A stretch of 39,432 bases of DNA from NCBI GenBank assembly GCA_043803105.1, contig JAZDKJ010000003.1:1-39432 (forward strand), read 5' to 3'. Source of the stretch: Candidatus Woesearchaeota archaeon. Lineage in GTDB: Archaea > Nanobdellota > Nanobdellia > Woesearchaeales > JAZDKJ01. Of this stretch, positions 13,143 to 30,950 are shown piece after piece (within the stretch, counting starts at the first letter, position 1; each line of letters opens with the position of its first letter). The notes below the pieces were generated by a model. The model had not been told where the DNA came from, did not search any database, and saw nothing but the letters and a program-made list of their open reading frames with translations. The translations under genes were made by a program, and so were the position numbers.

Positions 13143-13703
13143 ATGCTTTCAAAGAAGGCAACAAAAAGCCTGCACACAATAATGATCGTGATAATCATAG
13201 TTGCACTCGCTGCACCACTAATAGTGTACAGCGCAAGCGGTGGATCGAGCAGCGGAGGGTGCTGCGGAGGCTGCTGCAGCAGCAGCGATGTTGAAGACAC
13301 CCAAGGAGACGGAACAGAGACTGCAGAAGATGCTGTGCCGACACCAGCACCAGCACCAGGGCCGACAATCTGCGAGCAAAAAAAGATATCAATCACAAAA
13401 GTCAACGGAACATTCAAGCAGACAATTCTATCAAACCATTATGAGTACACCTACAGTTACACAATAACTGCATGCAAGGAAGGGCTTACATGCAAAGTGA
13501 GTTTTGATGGGCTCAAAACATCCAGCCCTGAAGGAACATTCAGCGTGCCAATGAACAGCACAACCTCAAGGTCAGGGACATATTCTTCAGAACAGGTTGA
13601 AGGGTTTGAGACAAAGGATGTTTTCAACCAGATGACAATAGAGGTCTCTGACAAGAGTGTGGGAAATTGCGGAGCAGGAAAATTCTGTTATCCTGAGCGA
13701 TAA
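13143..13703 (+). CDS. Membrane-anchored protein with a GGCCGGCC motif, acidic/Pro linker and small beta domain
   Basis: MLSKKA plus a hydrophobic helix, then SGGSSSGGCCGGCCSSS and PTPAPAPGP. TTTAAATA about 25 nt upstream. Codon usage matches other + strand genes. Confidence 0.75.
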   Translation: MLSKKATKSLHTIMIVIIIVALAAPLIVYSASGGSSSGGCCGGCCSSSDVEDTQGDGTETAEDAVPTPAPAPGPTICEQKKISITKVNGTFKQTILSNHYEYTYSYTITACKEGLTCKVSFDGLKTSSPEGTFSVPMNSTTSRSGTYSSEQVEGFETKDVFNQMTIEVSDKSVGNCGAGKFCYPER

Positions 13704-13735: not shown

Positions 13736-14497
13736 ATGATACCCTACAGGCTAATGCCCTCATTCTATATTGCAGGAATCCACATAGGGGTAGCGCCTTT
13801 AATGTCAACATTAGGCTTTGTGGTGATGGGATATCTTGCAGCAAGAGAAGCTAAGAAAATCAAATTGTTCAGAGACAGGAACGAGAGCTTGCTGTTCTTT
13901 TTGCTGTTTGCCTTATGCAGCCTTGCTGGAGGAAGAATTTGGTATTTTACAGAACATTTTGACGGAGCTGCAACGATAAGACAGTTCTTTAACGTGTTTG
14001 AACCAGGGCTTGCATCATTTGGGATGATAATAGGCGGAGCAGTATTCCTTGCACTATGGACCAGGAAGCATAGAAAAGGCTCATTCGCACTCCTTGCAGA
14101 TGTCACAGCACTATATACTCCACTTTTCATAGCAATATACAGGATTGGATGCTATTTCAACGGCTGCTGCTATGGAATAAGAACCAATGTAGCATGGGCA
14201 TTGAAGAACACAATAACAGGGGTTGCACGGCATCCAAGCCAAGTGTATGAAATAGCGAGCGCACTTTTAATATTCGTGATATTAAAGCATATGAAAAAAA
14301 GATTCAAAGGAGAGATAGCATTGTGGTTCCTGGTGCTTTACGCAACAGGGAGGTTCATAACAGACTTTTTCAGGTACTACCCAGAACATTATTTGGGATT
14401 GTCAATAACCCAATTCTATTGTCTAGGAATATTTTTGATAGGGTCATTCTTGCTTACGAGAAAATACCTTATCATTTATCGTACCAGTCGGGCTTGA
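13736..14497 (+). CDS. lgt: Prolipoprotein diacylglyceryl transferase (Lgt) family protein, GCC-type
   Basis: GGRIWY, RIGCYFNGCCYG (canonical RLGNFxNGExxG), RHPSQVYE and YATGRFITDFFR; about 7 TM. Confidence 0.88.
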   Translation: MIPYRLMPSFYIAGIHIGVAPLMSTLGFVVMGYLAAREAKKIKLFRDRNESLLFFLLFALCSLAGGRIWYFTEHFDGAATIRQFFNVFEPGLASFGMIIGGAVFLALWTRKHRKGSFALLADVTALYTPLFIAIYRIGCYFNGCCYGIRTNVAWALKNTITGVARHPSQVYEIASALLIFVILKHMKKRFKGEIALWFLVLYATGRFITDFFRYYPEHYLGLSITQFYCLGIFLIGSFLLTRKYLIIYRTSRA

Positions 14498-15974
14498 TAT
14501 TATAATTGACTGACTTGCCAAAAGGCTGCAAAACAAAGTTAAGAAAATATTTCCAAGTGATGTTTCTCTTTGATGCAGCAAGATTGTTAATGGCATTAAG
14601 CCGCCTCTTGCCAGTAGAATCTGGCCTAAAAAACTGTTCCCTATACCCTCTTGAAGACAAACCGCTTAAAAAAGTGCGCCAAAGCAGCCAATTCCTAGAC
14701 ATATTGGCAGAACGCATAACAGGATTGATAAAGTTATAGTATCTGTAATCATTTTCCTCAAGCAAATCGTTATTGGCAAAGTATTTTGTTCCTGGCAATG
14801 GAGTTAATGGAATTGGCATGCCAACATCAAAGGGAAGGTCCTTCAAGACATGATAAAATTCTTTTAAAGATTTAGGGGTTTCATCCGGAAGGCCGTAAAT
14901 ATAGGAGGCAATGGAAAGAACCTGCGGATATTCTGCAACAATATTGAAAGCCTTGGCAACAGTGCTGTAATCATTAGACCTCTTGTTCAGAAAAACAAGG
15001 TCTGAAGGATTAATCCTTTCAATACCTATCATCACCTGCCTTGTGCCTGCCTTAACAAGCTTGGAGAATATGCCTTTGTTATCGTCTCTGACAATATAAT
15101 CAGCACGCATCCACATGGCATGGTCAACATCAAGCTTTCTTTTGGAAATCTCATTACAGAACTCAAGGTTCCAATGAGAGTCAGCATTCCAAGTAGGGTC
15201 AACCCAACAAAAGGTCTTTCTTTTGAATTTTTGTTGCAGACATTCAATCTCATCAACAGTCTTTTTTACTGACTTTGTACGGTAGCAGGGCTTTGGCACA
15301 CCACTCTTAGGATTAATTGAGGCCATCTGCTTCCATAAGACACAAAAATTGCAGCTAGAGGAGCAGCCTCGACTATGCTCAACAGCAACAAAATCCCTGT
15401 GGCTGTGACTTTGCGAACCATAATGGTCCATGTCGAGCAAATCGAAGGCAGGCATTGGCAGTTTTTCCATGTCCAACAAGGGCCTTGGTTTTGTGTGGAC
15501 AACCCTTTGTCCATTACGAAAGGCAATTCCCTTAATATCAGCGAAATTGTCTTTTCCATCAAGAAGGAAATTGGAAAGCTCGAGCATAGTAAGCTCACCT
15601 TCGTGTTTGACAACAAAATCAACAGGATTATTCAACAAGGTATTTTCTGCAGTAAAAGTGAAGTGGCAGCCACCAACTATGACCTTCACTTCAGGATTTA
15701 GTTCTTTAGCAAGAGAGGCAAGACGCAAAGCCTCGTGGCTTGAGGCAGTCTCTTCACCAAGACAAAGAACATCTGGCTTTTCGTGCCTCAAAATAGGAGC
15801 AACATGTTTCCAGCCAATACCTGCAGCAGGAAGGTCCCTTACCGCAACCTTGACGTCAAGATTTTCACGCAAGACAGCAGCCATTGAGCAGAATCCCAAG
15901 GGAGGCCAAAAGCTACTATGGCTTGAGTGAAAAGCCCACTGATACCTTGGGGCTTTTGCAAATAGGATTTTCAT
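14472..15974 (-). CDS. Cobalamin-binding radical SAM enzyme
   Basis: N-terminal B12-binding domain (PPLG, GGCHFT, EGELT), SRGCSSSCNFC (CX3CX2C), IGIE, GLPDET and TPLPGT. Confidence 0.93.
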   Translation of the reverse strand: MKILFAKAPRYQWAFHSSHSSFWPPLGFCSMAAVLRENLDVKVAVRDLPAAGIGWKHVAPILRHEKPDVLCLGEETASSHEALRLASLAKELNPEVKVIVGGCHFTFTAENTLLNNPVDFVVKHEGELTMLELSNFLLDGKDNFADIKGIAFRNGQRVVHTKPRPLLDMEKLPMPAFDLLDMDHYGSQSHSHRDFVAVEHSRGCSSSCNFCVLWKQMASINPKSGVPKPCYRTKSVKKTVDEIECLQQKFKRKTFCWVDPTWNADSHWNLEFCNEISKRKLDVDHAMWMRADYIVRDDNKGIFSKLVKAGTRQVMIGIERINPSDLVFLNKRSNDYSTVAKAFNIVAEYPQVLSIASYIYGLPDETPKSLKEFYHVLKDLPFDVGMPIPLTPLPGTKYFANNDLLEENDYRYYNFINPVMRSANMSRNWLLWRTFLSGLSSRGYREQFFRPDSTGKRRLNAINNLAASKRNITWKYFLNFVLQPFGKSVNYNIKPDWYDK

Positions 15975-16016
15975 CTAGACAAGCAAAGAACTGGGAAGAG
16001 ATATAAATTGTTTGCC

Positions 16017-16097
16017 TTATGAAACGATACAGCCCGCAGTAAGGACAGCTGCCAATAGAACACAAATGCAAACAAAAAGCCTCAAGAGTTTTTCCAT
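16017..16097 (-). CDS. 26-aa lipobox micropeptide MEKLLRLFVCICVLLAAVLTAGCIVS
   Basis: ATG 16097 to TAA 16017. Charged n-region, hydrophobic h-region and lipobox TAG-C, with its own TATA box. Too short for the supplied ORF track. Confidence 0.7.
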   Translation of the reverse strand: MEKLLRLFVCICVLLAAVLTAGCIVS

Positions 16098-16116
16098 TCT
16101 CTAAAGTTCCTTGGCA

Positions 16117-16128
16117 TTTATATAAAAA
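16117..16128 (-). promoter_or_regulatory. TATA box for the micropeptide
   Basis: TTTTTATATAAA, core 22-29 nt upstream of ATG 16097. A second TTTATAT at 16001-16007 precedes the radical SAM gene. Confidence 0.65.
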
Positions 16129-16137
16129 CCTTTGCAA

Positions 16138-18156
16138 TCACAACCTGCTGATGATTCCGTGACGAGGCTCGTAAATGTCACCTGAACGCTTGAGCTTCTC
16201 GATAGCGCTTTCGACATCGCTCTCATCCATGCCTTTTTCTGTGGCAAGCCTCATAATATCTTCAATAGGAATCGTCTTACCGAGCTTATTCTCAAGCTCC
16301 ACAATGATCTCCTTAATGCTGACTATCCTTGTCCTCTGCGTTGCTGTAATACCTGTGGCAATCCTGTCAATGTCGATAGTCCCAGTCTCTTCATCAAGGG
16401 CAATCTGCCTTAAGCAATAATCAAGAAGATTGATGGCACGCCTTGCGTCCTTCTTAGTGACTTTGTCCGATAGACGAACACGCGCAGCGGCCTCAGACAA
16501 ACGGATAAGGCCTTCAAGCTGCCTTGGAGAAATTGGAATGGACTTAACAGCACCTTCGATAGAGCCGGAAGCACGCATCTTGAGATAATAGAGCTCAATC
16601 TCTTCAACAGCAGCTTCTGTCAGCCTGGGCTTGAGATTCTGCTTTGCATAAGCAATATACTTTCTTAGAAGATTAGTGGATATTTCTGGCTCCTCAACAT
16701 AGGGATTCTGATGAAGATTCAAGATAAAGCGAGCCATCTTCTTGTCTTTATCCTCATCTGGCAGGTCCTTTATCGGAAAAATAAGGTCAAACCTGTTGAT
16801 TAAAGTTGAGGGAAGATCAATCTGCTCGGCAATATTACCATAAGGATCAAAGCGGCCAAACTTGGGATTAGCTGCAGCAAGCACAGTCGTCTCGCAAGTC
16901 AAAGTAGCCTGGATGTTTGCCTTGGCAATGCTAACAGACTGCTGTTCAAGACCTTCGTGCATAGCGCTACGGTCCTCTTTACTCATCTTGTCAAGCTCAT
17001 CAATAGCACACAAACCATGATTTGCCAAGACAAGGGCGCCTGCCTCAAGAGAATAGCCCTGCAAAAACTCGTCCCGCACAACTGAAGCTGTAAGGCCTGC
17101 TCCTGTGGTACCTTTACCGCTAACATACCTTGCCTTAGGGGCAACGTTGGTGATGCGCTTTAATAATTGACTTTTTCCACTTCCTGGATCACCAATTAGC
17201 AAAACGTGAATATCTCCTCTTGTAACTGCGCCGCCTTCACGAGACTTTCTGACACCGCCCATCAACTGATAGAGAAGGGCTTCCTTGATGACCTCATGGC
17301 CGTAAATTGACGGAGCAATAGACTGGACTAACCTCGAGTACAGCTTGGGGTCCTCTGATAACTCCCTAATCTGCTCAAGCTCCTCAGGCAACACATTAAG
17401 GTCGAGAAATTCCTCCTGAGAGGCCTCGATATGGTTCGCCTCAATCAGTATATCAAAACGGGTGCTTTGGCCGCCACTCTTCAAAGTGATAGGAACCTCT
17501 TTGACCTGGCCAACAACAATAATCTTGGTGCCAGGATTAGTATGCTTTTCTGACAGAGGGCTAACCAAATCATTCTTCAGGAAAATCTTTATCCTCTTAG
17601 GCTGCTCTCCACCCTCAAGTTCTTCAGTAGCCTCCTCCAGAGTAAGGCTCTGCACATCAACAAGCTCCTTGCTTAGCAGATGAAACCTGCCTTTCCTGCC
17701 GCAACTGCACTTAGAAGGCTCCTTGAACTTTGTGTCAAGCTGAAGAACATTTATTATAGCACCACAAACAGGACACTCAAACTTTGAAGAAGTAACCTGA
17801 GGCCGGACATCAGACTTCTGCCTAACAATGCCAACCATCCACAAAAGCTTGCCAAGATGGGAACTCCTAATGTTCCTGACCATGATCTTCTGGCTGGACG
17901 AAATGTTCTTGAACCGACAGGTGAAATCCTTGGCATCGCCCTGGGAATCAAACTGCTCAATAGCGAGCCGAGCAGTCTGTAAGACCTCATCAGGCTTTTC
18001 GAGCAAAAGGTCAGCTAAAGCAGGATCAAACTCTGAGAGCAATGCAAAATCAAGAGTAATAAATTTCTCCTTCTTGCGAATCTTTTCCAGAAGCTCAGCA
18101 TAGTAATAATGCTCGAAAAAATTCTGAAACTTGGCAACTTGCTCGCTTTCTTCCAT
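16138..18156 (-). CDS. mcm: MCM replicative helicase
   Basis: Zn finger CPVCG...CSCG, Walker A GDPGSGKS, GLTA, IDELDKM, AAANP, arginine finger NRFD and a C-terminal wH. No intein. Confidence 0.98.
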   Translation of the reverse strand: MEESEQVAKFQNFFEHYYYAELLEKIRKKEKFITLDFALLSEFDPALADLLLEKPDEVLQTARLAIEQFDSQGDAKDFTCRFKNISSSQKIMVRNIRSSHLGKLLWMVGIVRQKSDVRPQVTSSKFECPVCGAIINVLQLDTKFKEPSKCSCGRKGRFHLLSKELVDVQSLTLEEATEELEGGEQPKRIKIFLKNDLVSPLSEKHTNPGTKIIVVGQVKEVPITLKSGGQSTRFDILIEANHIEASQEEFLDLNVLPEELEQIRELSEDPKLYSRLVQSIAPSIYGHEVIKEALLYQLMGGVRKSREGGAVTRGDIHVLLIGDPGSGKSQLLKRITNVAPKARYVSGKGTTGAGLTASVVRDEFLQGYSLEAGALVLANHGLCAIDELDKMSKEDRSAMHEGLEQQSVSIAKANIQATLTCETTVLAAANPKFGRFDPYGNIAEQIDLPSTLINRFDLIFPIKDLPDEDKDKKMARFILNLHQNPYVEEPEISTNLLRKYIAYAKQNLKPRLTEAAVEEIELYYLKMRASGSIEGAVKSIPISPRQLEGLIRLSEAAARVRLSDKVTKKDARRAINLLDYCLRQIALDEETGTIDIDRIATGITATQRTRIVSIKEIIVELENKLGKTIPIEDIMRLATEKGMDESDVESAIEKLKRSGDIYEPRHGIISRL

Positions 18157-27474: not shown

Positions 27475-28953
27475 TCAGTCTTTTTTTGCTGCAACAGAGA
27501 GCTCTTTTAGGCGCGAAGGATTAGTAAAGGCAACACCAACTCCTGAAGAGACAGTCTTAAACATGAGGGAAGTGGCAGTAATTAAGATCTTGGGCTTTCG
27601 TATGGCAAACCGGATAACCCTTAAGATACTAGCAGGATCAGCCAAATAATTTACAAGATAAACAAGCTTGTTTGAATAACCAATCTTGCCAAAGCACTCC
27701 TTGATATAGTGCCTGGAACGCAAGAGCTCTTCATGCGACATTGTTGGCAAGTCAAGGGTCAGGGTAGTATCTTCAGTGTAGCTCAGGGTTGACCAATCAG
27801 GCTTACCCTTCAACCAGCCTTTCTCTCTTGCCTCATCAAAAAGGTAGGTTCCGGGCAAAGGGGTTGTGAGATGAACTTCGATAGAGAAAGGCTTTATCTC
27901 TCTTAAAAGCATGCAGGTGTTAAGAACAGAAGACTTGGTCTCACCAACATTGCCAACCATGAGATAAGCATGCGCAAGAATACCAATGCGCTTACAGGCA
28001 TTAAAGGCCTTTCGTACATCATCAAGCTTTGTGTATTTTCTAATGTTCTTCAGGATTGTTTCATCTCCAGTCTCTACACCGAAGGCTATAGCGATGCAGC
28101 CTGCAAGCTTCATCAATCTTAAGGTCTTTTCTGAAATGTTCACCCTTGCCTGACATCTCCATATGATATCAATCTTCTGGCGGATAATCTCTTCACAAAT
28201 CATATCAGCATGGTTTCCTATACCGAAAGTATCGTCGCTAAACACGATTATATCAGGATTGTGCTTTTCCTTAAGCTGCTTGATCTCTGCAACAACATTC
28301 TTGGCACTCCTGAACCTAAGCTTCTTGCCGAAAATAGCCCTGAGGCAGGGCTGGCAATAGGTGCAATCACCATAACAGCCCCGGCTTGAAATAATGCTGA
28401 GCTCCCGAATGTTCCTCAAAGCAAAGTATATTTCAAGAGGAAAAAGATCCTGCCTGGGAAAGGGAAGCAGATCGATATTTTCAATCGGAGGCCTTGGAGC
28501 AGTCTTCTTGACTTTGCTGCCTGCCTTGAAGCATATTCCCTTAACCTTTGCCAGGCTGCGGCTATCAATAATTGCCTCGCAAAGCTCGAAAAGCGTAAGC
28601 TCTCCCTCTCCGACAACAACAAAATCTACATGCGGATTCTTACAAGTATCTTCAGGAAGCACAGTGGGATGAGGGCCGCCCATGATAACAACATTATGTT
28701 TGTTAATGCGCTTGATATCTAAACAAGCACGGAAAGCAGTCGAACTCAAGGTGCTCGTAGAGGTAATAGCATAAATCTGCGGTTCTTGAGACAACTGGCT
28801 TAGCCAATCCTTGCAGAAGGTCAGGTCAAAAACCCTTGTTTGGTAGCCCTTATTAGAAAGATAAGCTGCCAAATAACCAATGCCTAAAGGAGGATAAACA
28901 CCAATGTTCTTAGACAAGTCATTCGGATAAACAAAATTGACCTTCCTTTCCAT
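27475..28953 (-). CDS. Cobalamin-binding radical SAM enzyme
   Basis: PPLGIGYLAAYL, GGPHPT, GEGE, SRGCYGDCTYC, SDDTF, FGVETG and TPLPGT. Alternative start 28971. Confidence 0.93.
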   Translation of the reverse strand: MERKVNFVYPNDLSKNIGVYPPLGIGYLAAYLSNKGYQTRVFDLTFCKDWLSQLSQEPQIYAITSTSTLSSTAFRACLDIKRINKHNVVIMGGPHPTVLPEDTCKNPHVDFVVVGEGELTLFELCEAIIDSRSLAKVKGICFKAGSKVKKTAPRPPIENIDLLPFPRQDLFPLEIYFALRNIRELSIISSRGCYGDCTYCQPCLRAIFGKKLRFRSAKNVVAEIKQLKEKHNPDIIVFSDDTFGIGNHADMICEEIIRQKIDIIWRCQARVNISEKTLRLMKLAGCIAIAFGVETGDETILKNIRKYTKLDDVRKAFNACKRIGILAHAYLMVGNVGETKSSVLNTCMLLREIKPFSIEVHLTTPLPGTYLFDEAREKGWLKGKPDWSTLSYTEDTTLTLDLPTMSHEELLRSRHYIKECFGKIGYSNKLVYLVNYLADPASILRVIRFAIRKPKILITATSLMFKTVSSGVGVAFTNPSRLKELSVAAKKD

Positions 28954-29055
28954 AAAATCAGGACAATGCATTTTTTCTTATAAAGCTTAGCATTAGGAAA
29001 TCAACAAAAAACAGAGCAGACTGAAGCAGATACGCTTATAAAGGCACTATTTTTC

Positions 29056-29507: not shown

Positions 29508-30950
29508 ATGAGATTAGCAATAATAAACCCAAATCTAAGCGGAAGCATCTCTGGCCTTGATATGGGTGTTGCATACCTGGCAACATACATCGATGAGAGG
29601 ACGAAACACCAAGTGAAAATAATTGACTTGACTTTTCACCGGAAGGACTGGAAGGGGCACATAAGGAAAGAATTCAGGAAGTTCAAGCCTGAAGTGGTAG
29701 GCATATCTGTGGTATCATTATACCTGTCTTATGCAAGAGATGTTGCGAGGGAAGTGAAGCGGATTTCTAGGGTACCTATCATAGTGGGGGGAATGCACCC
29801 GACACTTGAACCGGAAGAAACAATAAAAATACCTGAATTTGACGCTCTCTCTATAGCTGACGGAGAGGAAACACTAACAGAATACCTTGACGCATTGCAA
29901 GAAAACAAACCATTGAGCACAATAAAGGGACTTTGGTACAAGCAAAAAGGGCAAGTGCATAGAAATGAAGGTAGGCCATGGACTGACAACATAAACAGCC
30001 TGCCAATACCAAACTATGACCTATGGGATGACATAGACAAGTATTTCAAATTCATGCAGAGGCTGTACTTCATAGGAGTCAGAGGGTGCCCATACCGATG
30101 CACATACTGCGACGAGCACGCCCTAAACAAAACAAGCACAGGCAAGAGATACAGAATAAGGGACCCGAGAGCATTTGCAAGAGAGGTAAAGCACCAATAT
30201 GACAAGTACAGGGAAAGGGGAATGAGGCTTGCGCACATGTTCGATGCAGTATTCACATTTGACAAGAAATGGCTGGAGGAATTTACAGATGAATACAAAA
30301 AACTAGGGCTGTCGAAGCGATTGCCATACACAATCTTCATAAAAGCAGACAACCTTAACTCAAGCGAGGACAAGCTAAAGATGCTCAAGGACAGCGGATG
30401 CAGGCAGATAAGGGTCGGAATAGAGGCAGGGGATGAAGACGTGAGGACAAAGATCTACAAGAAAGCAGGAACAACAAACAAACAACTAGAGGGGTTTATC
30501 AAAGCATACAAAAAGCATGGGCTTGTAGTTAAGGCATACAACATACTTGGGGGGCCTGGAGAAACACAGGATACAATAAAGAAGACGGTAGAGATAAACA
30601 AAAGGTTCAAGACAGACATACCCTTGTTCTTCACATACACACCTTTGCCAGGAACAACAATACTTGAGATGATAGAAGGAGAAACCACAATGGCAACAAG
30701 CCTGCATTTCAAAGAATCAATACACCTGAAGGGAGTGCCAAAAAACTTTGTGGAAAAAATGCAAAGACATGCATACCTATACTTTGTTCCGCGCATGATG
30801 ATAAGGGTGTTTCTTAAGCACCCAATCAAATTCAGCTATATGATGGCCACAAGGGTCTTAAGCGGTATTGCATTGGACGCTGACTTGAGACTAGTTGTTG
30901 CTTATACAGTCTCTAGCCCACTTTTCTGGGATGCTTTCGCTCAAGCCTAA
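29508..30950 (+). CDS. Cobalamin-binding radical SAM enzyme
   Basis: GVAYLATY, GGMHPT, DGEET, RGCPYRCTYC, VGIEAG, GGPGET and TPLPGT. Confidence 0.93.
   Translation: MRLAIINPNLSGSISGLDMGVAYLATYIDERTKHQVKIIDLTFHRKDWKGHIRKEFRKFKPEVVGISVVSLYLSYARDVAREVKRISRVPIIVGGMHPTLEPEETIKIPEFDALSIADGEETLTEYLDALQENKPLSTIKGLWYKQKGQVHRNEGRPWTDNINSLPIPNYDLWDDIDKYFKFMQRLYFIGVRGCPYRCTYCDEHALNKTSTGKRYRIRDPRAFAREVKHQYDKYRERGMRLAHMFDAVFTFDKKWLEEFTDEYKKLGLSKRLPYTIFIKADNLNSSEDKLKMLKDSGCRQIRVGIEAGDEDVRTKIYKKAGTTNKQLEGFIKAYKKHGLVVKAYNILGGPGETQDTIKKTVEINKRFKTDIPLFFTYTPLPGTTILEMIEGETTMATSLHFKESIHLKGVPKNFVEKMQRHAYLYFVPRMMIRVFLKHPIKFSYMMATRVLSGIALDADLRLVVAYTVSSPLFWDAFAQA

Follow-up and report, generated by a model that had tools for sequence, protein, structure and literature searches.

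A 26-codon woesearchaeal micro-ORF with a lipoprotein-type signal: a credible but orphan candidate near a divergent Lgt gene

The window analysed here is a stretch of 39,432 nucleotides that makes up one whole contig of a Candidatus Woesearchaeota archaeon, whose genome (1.56 Mb in 13 contigs) carries MCM, TBP and archaeal promoters. Between the stop of the MCM helicase gene and the start of a gene for a B12-binding radical SAM enzyme, its minus strand holds a micro open reading frame (micro-ORF) with an ATG start, 26 codons and a TAA stop, which translates exactly as quoted in an earlier note made from the sequence alone. We regard the micro-ORF as a credible candidate, if an orphan one; what is new about its surroundings is better grounded. 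The reading we favour, tentatively and at less than even confidence, is that it is a genuine, separately transcribed micro-gene expressed as a minimal prelipoprotein. The features on which this reading depends are the following.

16017..16097, minus strand: the micro-ORF, 26 codons plus TAA, with an n-region M-E-K-L-L-R, an h-region at residues 7-19, the lipobox L-T-A-G-C and then I-V-S.
16029..16031, minus strand: the codon, read from the sequence, of Cys23, which is predicted to be lipidated and to begin the mature product.
16117..16133, minus strand: P1, the predicted micro-ORF promoter, with an AAA resembling the B recognition element (BRE) at 16133-16131 and the TATA TTTTTATATAAA at 16128-16117.
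16001..16013, minus strand: P2, the predicted radical SAM promoter, AAACAATTTATAT, which begins 4 nt past the micro-ORF stop and scores 8.9 bits with a 3-nt shift.

In the host genome the promoter register is usable as a predictor of gene starts. Upstream of 1253 long ORFs the starts of TATA-like 8-mers peak sharply at –33 to –29 from the ATG, and a BRE-like AAA precedes this peak at –35 to –33. The register is very uniform, and the host therefore appears to make mostly leaderless mRNAs. At the micro-ORF the AAA lies at –36 to –34 and the TATA at –31 to –20, so that the TATA box at leaderless spacing described in the earlier note does fall in the –36 to –20 register of host promoters. A promoter matrix trained on 160 host promoters and scored over –37 to –22 (training mean 9.1 bits) gives the micro-ORF 9.7 bits at zero shift and 11.1 bits at –1. 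Its neighbours score 9.2 (MCM), 9.9 (Lgt2, a divergent paralogue of Lgt), 12.4 (a poly-Cys gene) and 8.9 bits (radical SAM), and the micro-ORF promoter is as good as theirs. P2 fits the radical SAM ATG with its 3-nt shift, in agreement with the claim that the next gene's TATA lies just past the stop. The gap between the MCM and radical SAM genes, 163 nt in all, is fully occupied by P1, the micro-ORF and P2.

The micro-ORF promoter score is reached by 18 of the 2126 intergenic ATGs that open ORFs of 18-70 amino acids, the micro-ORF being the 18th. The chance rate in shuffled intergenic DNA is 101 of 157,436 ATGs (0.064%), compared with 68 of 46,621 inside coding DNA (0.15%) and 27 of 4750 in real intergenic DNA (0.57%); coding and intergenic calls follow a crude gene map of the longest ORFs of at least 100 amino acids, by which about 88% of the genome is coding. 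Codons 2 and 3 of the micro-ORF (GAA AAA) match the A-rich start typical after real host ATGs. On both strands between 13000 and 18300, promoter matches of at least 7.5 bits comprise six gene starts including the micro-ORF, one unassigned site (18263, plus strand) and three intragenic sites, and none is antisense to the micro-ORF. Strong leaderless promoters also stand before other tiny ORFs of the host, namely C6:271905-272000, C2:132767-132868, C12:24841-24981 and C8:149087-149188, all on the plus strand. These encode single-helix peptides of 31, 33 and 46 amino acids and a 33-residue Arg/Lys-rich peptide, have no Pfam match, and are candidate unannotated micropeptide genes.

The micro-ORF peptide carries charges at K3 and R6, is uncharged from residue 7 to residue 22, and runs through L-T-A-G-C, with Cys23, into Ile-Val-Ser and the stop. 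Ala at –2, Gly at –1 and Cys at +1 conform to the lipobox, in which Thr occupies –3 and Leu –4. The Thr fits the loose lipobox pattern that we used, which we take to be PROSITE-like, and lies outside the strictest form, [LVI][ASTVI][GAS]C. Passages of PMC12462473 quote this strictest form as [L/V/I]-3 [A/S/T/V/I]-2 [G/A/S]-1 C+1. About 26 canonical lipobox proteins are encoded in the host, and one predicted host lipoprotein, of 324 amino acids, likewise has Thr at –3.

We scored the peptide with a model of one pooled h-region distribution and four lipobox positions, based on 26 positives (32 long ORFs selected by a regular expression, or regex, minus six dropped by an automatic hydrophobicity filter). 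The micro-ORF reaches 17.8 bits, above 18 of the 26 predicted lipoprotein signals of the host (leave-one-out median 14.7). Among 1065 intergenic small ORFs it alone exceeds 10.2 bits, the runner-up having 10.0, and 0 of 46,258 ORFs from 40 shuffles reach 17.8 bits. The comparison is partly circular, since the peptide passes the very regex by which the positives were selected; the peptide itself was not a training sequence. By the host genome's own standard, the peptide is predicted to carry a lipoprotein-type signal. The lipoprotein architecture read into it by the earlier note is thus sound in its n-region charge, its h-region and its score, and departs from the strictest consensus at lipobox position –3. 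It is unlikely that chance explains a promoter in the exact register, a strong lipoprotein signal and the adjacency of an Lgt gene. Two readings fit all three: a micro-gene that works, or what survives of the front end of a lipoprotein gene.

As judged from conserved motifs, the host encodes, unusually for an archaeon, a bacterial-type Lgt in two copies and an Lsp, with key motifs kept.

Contig C8:13405-13788, minus strand: Lsp, with Pfam Peptidase_A8 at 125 bits, which aligns to solved LspA structures and retains the GNLxDR and FNxAD motifs.
Contig C9:1287-2021, minus strand: Lgt1, the canonical Lgt, at 235 bits, with the NCBIfam equivalog TIGR00544 at 180.7 bits against a cut-off of 118.9.
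Window 13736..14497, plus strand: Lgt2, the divergent Lgt paralogue, with Pfam LGT at 1.9e-41 (142 bits) and a likely start at ATG 13736 with its own promoter.

We take GNLxDR and FNxAD to hold the catalytic Asp pair of Lsp. Lgt1 retains H103, R143, N146, E151, G154, R239 and E243 (E. coli Lgt numbering), residues whose importance we assume from the E. coli literature. Lgt2 scores 74.7 bits with TIGR00544, under the cut-off; relative to E. coli Lgt it keeps R143, R239, Y235 and HPSQ, and is changed at H103 (to F), N146 (to C), E151 (to C) and E243 (to D). Among control genomes, the Lgt and Lsp profile search finds both proteins in 10 bacteria and in 0 of 4 model archaea. Across the order, 369 of 401 genomes have an Lgt-family match; setting aside the 15 genomes flagged as unpublished leaves 354 of 386. 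Passages of PMC12462473 and PMC6098224 state that no Lgt or Lsp homologue is known from archaea. The host genome also encodes site-2 proteases, including one at 1.3 kb from Lgt1. Lgt2, one of only two Lgt genes in the genome, lies 1.5 kb from the micro-ORF.

Given the signal, the promoter, Lgt and Lsp, and Lgt2 at this distance, a lipid-Cys-Ile-Val-Ser product is biochemically plausible. RNA polymerase would start at P1, as the matrix predicts, within 1-2 nt of the ATG and produce a leaderless mRNA. The 26-residue peptide would be too short for co-translational targeting and would insert into the membrane only once released, keeping K3 and R6 on the inner side and exposing its Gly-Cys-Ile-Val-Ser end on the outer face. 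By analogy with bacterial biochemistry, Lgt, either the canonical C9 copy or Lgt2, would add a glyceryl lipid to the Cys23 thiol, and Lsp would cleave between Gly22 and Cys23. This would yield lipid-Cys-Ile-Val-Ser anchored in the membrane and a free signal peptide of 22 residues, possibly trimmed further by a site-2 protease. If the peptide is made, N-in/C-out insertion, lipidation and cleavage should be expected whether the micro-ORF is a micro-gene or a remnant.

The earlier note suggested that the micro-ORF may encode the precursor of a lipo-tetrapeptide or a membrane micropeptide. In its full form, the lipo-tetrapeptide proposal holds that a DPANN archaeon makes a ribosomally encoded lipo-tetrapeptide from a dedicated 26-codon gene whose sole cargo is Cys-Ile-Val-Ser, lipidated by Lgt (possibly Lgt2 together with the B12 radical SAM enzyme) and released by Lsp; the lipopeptide could serve, for example, as a surface or host-contact molecule, and the freed signal peptide could be a second product. 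The lipoprotein-type signal, the predicted leaderless promoter of its own and the Lgt and Lsp of the host all speak for the interpretation in the note, which is partly supported, and no homologue of the micro-ORF appears among 400 other genomes of the order; we consider the full proposal rather unlikely.

Two other readings of the same peptide differ in what becomes of its Cys. It might stay unprocessed in the membrane as a single-helix micropeptide that serves some membrane enzyme, Lgt2 for example, as a small subunit or modulator; its Gly-Cys would then be incidental. Other promoter-bearing tiny ORFs of the host do encode single-helix peptides, as listed above. Here, however, it is the lipobox match, beyond the helix, that lifts the score to 17.8 bits, and in a host that encodes Lgt and Lsp a lipobox exposed at the outer end of a helix should undergo processing anyway. 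We consider such a micropeptide quite unlikely. The C-terminus also formally reads as C-aliphatic-aliphatic-X, and CaaX-type prenylation of Cys-Ile-Val-Ser had been floated as a speculation. Our results give it next to no credence: the host genome has no PPTA-repeat protein, and the Cys directly follows a hydrophobic helix in lipobox fashion. A Prenyltrans search was blank as well, but its controls were silent and it is uninformative.

Returning to the favoured reading of an expressed minimal prelipoprotein, a number of observations weigh against it. Several concern the peptide and its transcript. Only three residues follow Cys23, and they form no protein domain; Thr is an uncommon lipobox residue at –3; and no Pfam or NCBIfam family matches the peptide. 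The loose lipobox pattern is unspecific, with 171 ATG ORFs genome-wide, 62 of them shorter than 40 amino acids. The stricter regex retrieves 1 of the 1065 intergenic small ORFs, namely the micro-ORF, and is expected to retrieve 0.55 per dinucleotide-shuffled genome, so that alone it is not significant. With a first position-specific matrix, built on the 32 regex-selected ORFs, the micro-ORF scores 2.5 bits against a leave-one-out median of 12.6, and 25 of the 32 positives score higher. We judged this matrix overfitted, because three residues unseen at their positions cost 4.09 bits each, and the pooled model replaced it. The coding strand of the micro-ORF is 41% T, which favours hydrophobic codons, and a T5 run inside it (16078-16074) could terminate part of the transcripts. 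Finally, of the 17 small ORFs that outscore its promoter, one has a Pfam match above cut-off (DUF2283) and one a sub-threshold zinc-ribbon match. As these ORFs are mostly Pfam-blank, the promoter score as a predictor of real genes rests on enrichment statistics and not on annotation.

Some of these facts also suit the view that there is no gene at all, the AT-rich stretch after MCM being a terminator or a distal radical SAM promoter and the frame a product of chance on a T-rich strand. Another T5 run (16128-16124) lies inside the P1 TATA, 10-14 nt past the MCM stop, and may double as a terminator for MCM. Together with the T content of the strand, the regex expectation and the lack of conservation described below, there is the consideration that very many windows were screened and that rare coincidences will surface. 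On the other side, the joint chance of the promoter score (0.064-0.15%) and the signal score is very small, and the adjacency of an Lgt gene would be a further independent coincidence. We regard the absence of a gene as distinctly improbable.

Other kinds of element were also considered for this stretch. A structured RNA was rejected, with 0 Rfam matches in the window and a fold of 15960-16100 (minus strand) at z = –0.14. For a type I toxin-antitoxin system, there is no plus-strand promoter-matrix match opposite the micro-ORF and no Rfam family in the window. A scan for sigma-70 promoters and hairpin terminators, a type of scan not applicable to an archaeon, returned nothing.

The remaining observations against the favoured reading concern conservation. 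The comparison with related genomes proposed in the earlier note came out negative: 400 other genomes of the order and 351 kb of related loci yield no homologue, and the sister assembly does not contain the locus. A six-frame peptide search of the 401 genomes of the order recovers only the host itself (2e-11), with a next best E-value of 0.04. The regex finds no lipobox ORF shorter than 69 amino acids at 19 related loci, and 20 regions upstream of radical SAM orthologues hold no comparable co-oriented ORF. Over the 351 kb (12,672 small-ORF starts) the pooled matrix finds only a 69-residue copy in genome G039 and two spurious internal starts. Within the host genome there is no paralogue of the micro-ORF or of its promoter region. 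AT-rich frames of 47-49 amino acids that precede the radical SAM gene at L038 and L003/L047 were judged to be translated low-complexity promoter DNA and not relatives.

The sister assembly, G001, is the only genome of the same genus and is 84% complete. The 3' end of its MCM gene is 81% identical to that of the host and is followed by a convergent gene of 406 amino acids, not by the micro-ORF. In this incomplete assembly we found a single Lgt, of the canonical type, and neither Lgt2 nor a poly-Cys protein nor an orthologue of the radical SAM enzyme. The G001 MCM (L057 1-1662, contig C109) appears to be interrupted at the P-loop by an intein whose insert resembles a homing endonuclease. His-Asn closes this insert and Ser-Gly-Lys-Ser comes next; the window MCM (672 amino acids) has no such element.

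Such a record also suits the reading of the micro-ORF as the stump of a former lipoprotein gene, whose promoter and signal outlived a rearrangement or deletion of the mature part and which may be expressed and processed with no selected function. A stump accounts for a real promoter and a real signal and needs no conservation, of which none is seen. The neighbourhood is rearranged among relatives, as the changed order and orientation in L038 illustrate, and the adjacent lipobox family duplicates and truncates, with copies of 158, 80 and 69 amino acids in G039. A break within three codons of the lipobox Cys, followed by an immediate stop and then by the next promoter, would however be a narrow outcome. 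The micro-ORF shows no DNA or peptide similarity to other host signals or gene starts, nor to the poly-Cys proteins, whose C-C-G is missing, and in a compact genome the gap holds no other leftover sequence. We regard a stump as somewhat unlikely, though it is the main rival of a working micro-gene. We rejected a related idea, that the micro-ORF and a 1054-residue gene beyond the module are the halves of a split lipoprotein: the longer gene starts from a promoter of its own and encodes its own N-terminal helix, which the L038 and L047 orthologues share.

The genes around the micro-ORF, in addition to Lgt2, are these.

16138..18156, minus strand: the MCM replicative helicase, 672 amino acids, the upstream neighbour, with Pfam MCM at 1.4e-90, NCBIfam NF040949 at 731 bits and its stop codon at 16138-16140.
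14472..15974, minus strand: the B12-binding radical SAM enzyme, 500 amino acids, of a BchE/HpnJ-like clade, with Pfam B12-binding at 6.7e-16, Radical_SAM at 4.7e-09 and its start at 15974.
13143..13703, plus strand: the poly-Cys membrane protein, 186 amino acids, with a transmembrane or signal segment followed by GGCCGGCC and an acidic DxxGDG stretch.

Lgt2 and the radical SAM gene converge, and the poly-Cys gene lies directly upstream of Lgt2. The best NCBIfam match of the radical SAM enzyme is BchE at 177 bits (cut-off 481), and HpnJ, at 107 bits, is far under its own cut-off. The poly-Cys protein has a weak PF12669 match of 19.3 bits, under the cut-off of 27. A B12 radical SAM query gives 12 matches in the host genome, a large set of paralogues for its size. 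Of these 12, two besides the enzyme described here lie inside the window, at 27475-28971 (minus strand) and 29508-30950 (plus strand), and others are found on contigs C13 and C8.

The micro-ORF is in frame with the radical SAM ATG, with TAA and TAG between them. A read-through N-terminal extension of the enzyme was rejected, and the micro-ORF is not part of the radical SAM gene, because of these two in-frame stops and because orthologues begin at the same MKILF... residues. Systems for ribosomally synthesized and post-translationally modified peptides (RiPPs) usually place a small, co-oriented ORF immediately before the radical SAM gene, and the enzyme has weak matches to the RiPP methyltransferase models ApyD (86.8 bits) and rSAM_ocin_1 (80.4 bits), both far under their cut-offs. 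A RiPP-type precursor modified by this enzyme is nevertheless very improbable. No comparable ORF occurs in any of the 20 orthologous upstream regions, nor by regex at any of the 19 loci; Pfam shows only B12-binding and Radical_SAM domains in the enzyme, with no RiPP recognition element (RRE)/PqqD-like or SPASM domain; and the peptide resembles an export signal and not a leader plus core.

Orthologues of the radical SAM enzyme, at 33-53% identity, are found at 17 genome loci, of which 12 bear archaeal titles and 5 bacterial ones, and at five metagenome loci. An Lgt2-like gene lies within 4 kb of the orthologue at 7 of the 12 archaeal loci (L035, L037, L038, L039, L043, L044 and L045) and at 0 of the 5 bacterial loci; two archaeal loci break off before this can be judged. 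Lipobox proteins with Cys clusters adjoin radical SAM or Lgt2 genes in L035, L038 and L040. In L035, from genome G039, the three copies of 158, 80 and 69 amino acids stand in tandem. Six aligned poly-Cys sequences share an invariant C-C-G directly after the signal, the Cys cluster following right after the lipobox Cys. The micro-ORF lacks the C-C-G motif and has a single Cys after its helix. In L038 an MCM gene (69% identity), a poly-Cys lipoprotein, Lgt2 and the radical SAM gene occur together, with order and orientation changed.

Two further kinds of neighbour were noticed beside the radical SAM orthologues. A beta-propeller-like lipoprotein, which begins with an SPDG repeat, adjoins the orthologue in L041 (5570-7348) and L042 (5734-7515), both genome loci with Planctomycetota titles, and in the untitled metagenome loci L053 (2233-3435) and L054 (2182-3447). 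As a lipoprotein thus stands beside the orthologue at loci with bacterial titles too, the link between enzyme and lipoprotein may cross domains. A gene that by eye, from its N-terminal sequence, looks like a polyprenyl synthase lies just upstream of the orthologue in two Woesearchaeota loci, L034 (1939-2787) and L037 (2545-3393). This neighbour hints at a possible lipid-related role of the radical SAM enzyme.

If the favoured reading is true, the micro-ORF product would be by far the shortest natural lipoprotein, with four mature residues compared with 32 in an entericidin-type example described in passages of PMC7296081. It would also represent a gene-encoded route to a lipopeptide in an archaeon. 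The surroundings weigh more than the ORF itself: Lgt is widespread in the order, and a divergent Lgt is found repeatedly beside poly-Cys lipobox proteins and a B12 radical SAM enzyme. They point to archaeal use of the bacterial lipoprotein pathway, possibly with a specialised branch, which could be tested with a 26-residue synthetic substrate.

Among known systems, the prolipoproteins of the bacterial Lgt/Lsp pathway and the entericidin family share with the micro-ORF a charged n-region, an h-region, a lipobox ending in Gly-Cys, and Lgt and Lsp in the same genome. In the entericidin family, Atu8019 has 53 amino acids with a mature part of 32, according to passages of PMC7296081. Compared with Atu8019 and the entericidins, the micro-ORF product would have a mature part of four residues instead of 32, and the micro-ORF has Thr at –3, an archaeal host and no known homologues. 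The peptide Lpp(1-24), reportedly a 20-residue signal plus four mature residues, is similar to the micro-ORF peptide in length and is likewise built around a lipoprotein signal; it is, however, a laboratory construct, assayed with the E. coli enzyme and an ester phospholipid, whereas the micro-ORF is a natural sequence. A review names this synthetic 24-residue peptide, in passages of PMC8048626, as the first in vitro Lgt substrate, and Lgt thus needs no folded mature domain. In enterococcal sex pheromones, as set out in passages of PMC7117660, the active product arises from a lipoprotein signal peptide via Lgt, Lsp and a site-2 protease. The likeness to our case is that the signal peptide is a possible product and that site-2 proteases are encoded in the genome. 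The enterococcal inhibitor peptides come from separate ORFs of about 21-23 codons. They end at a signal-like hydrophobic stretch, and their precursors are shown without a lipobox Cys in Table 2 of PMC7117660. The enterococcal systems are carried on Firmicute plasmids and have known receptors, whereas no receptor or transporter is evident at the micro-ORF. The poly-Cys lipobox proteins of Woesearchaeota share its neighbourhood and its type of signal, with copies down to 69 amino acids; relative to them, the micro-ORF is without the C-C-G and everything after it.

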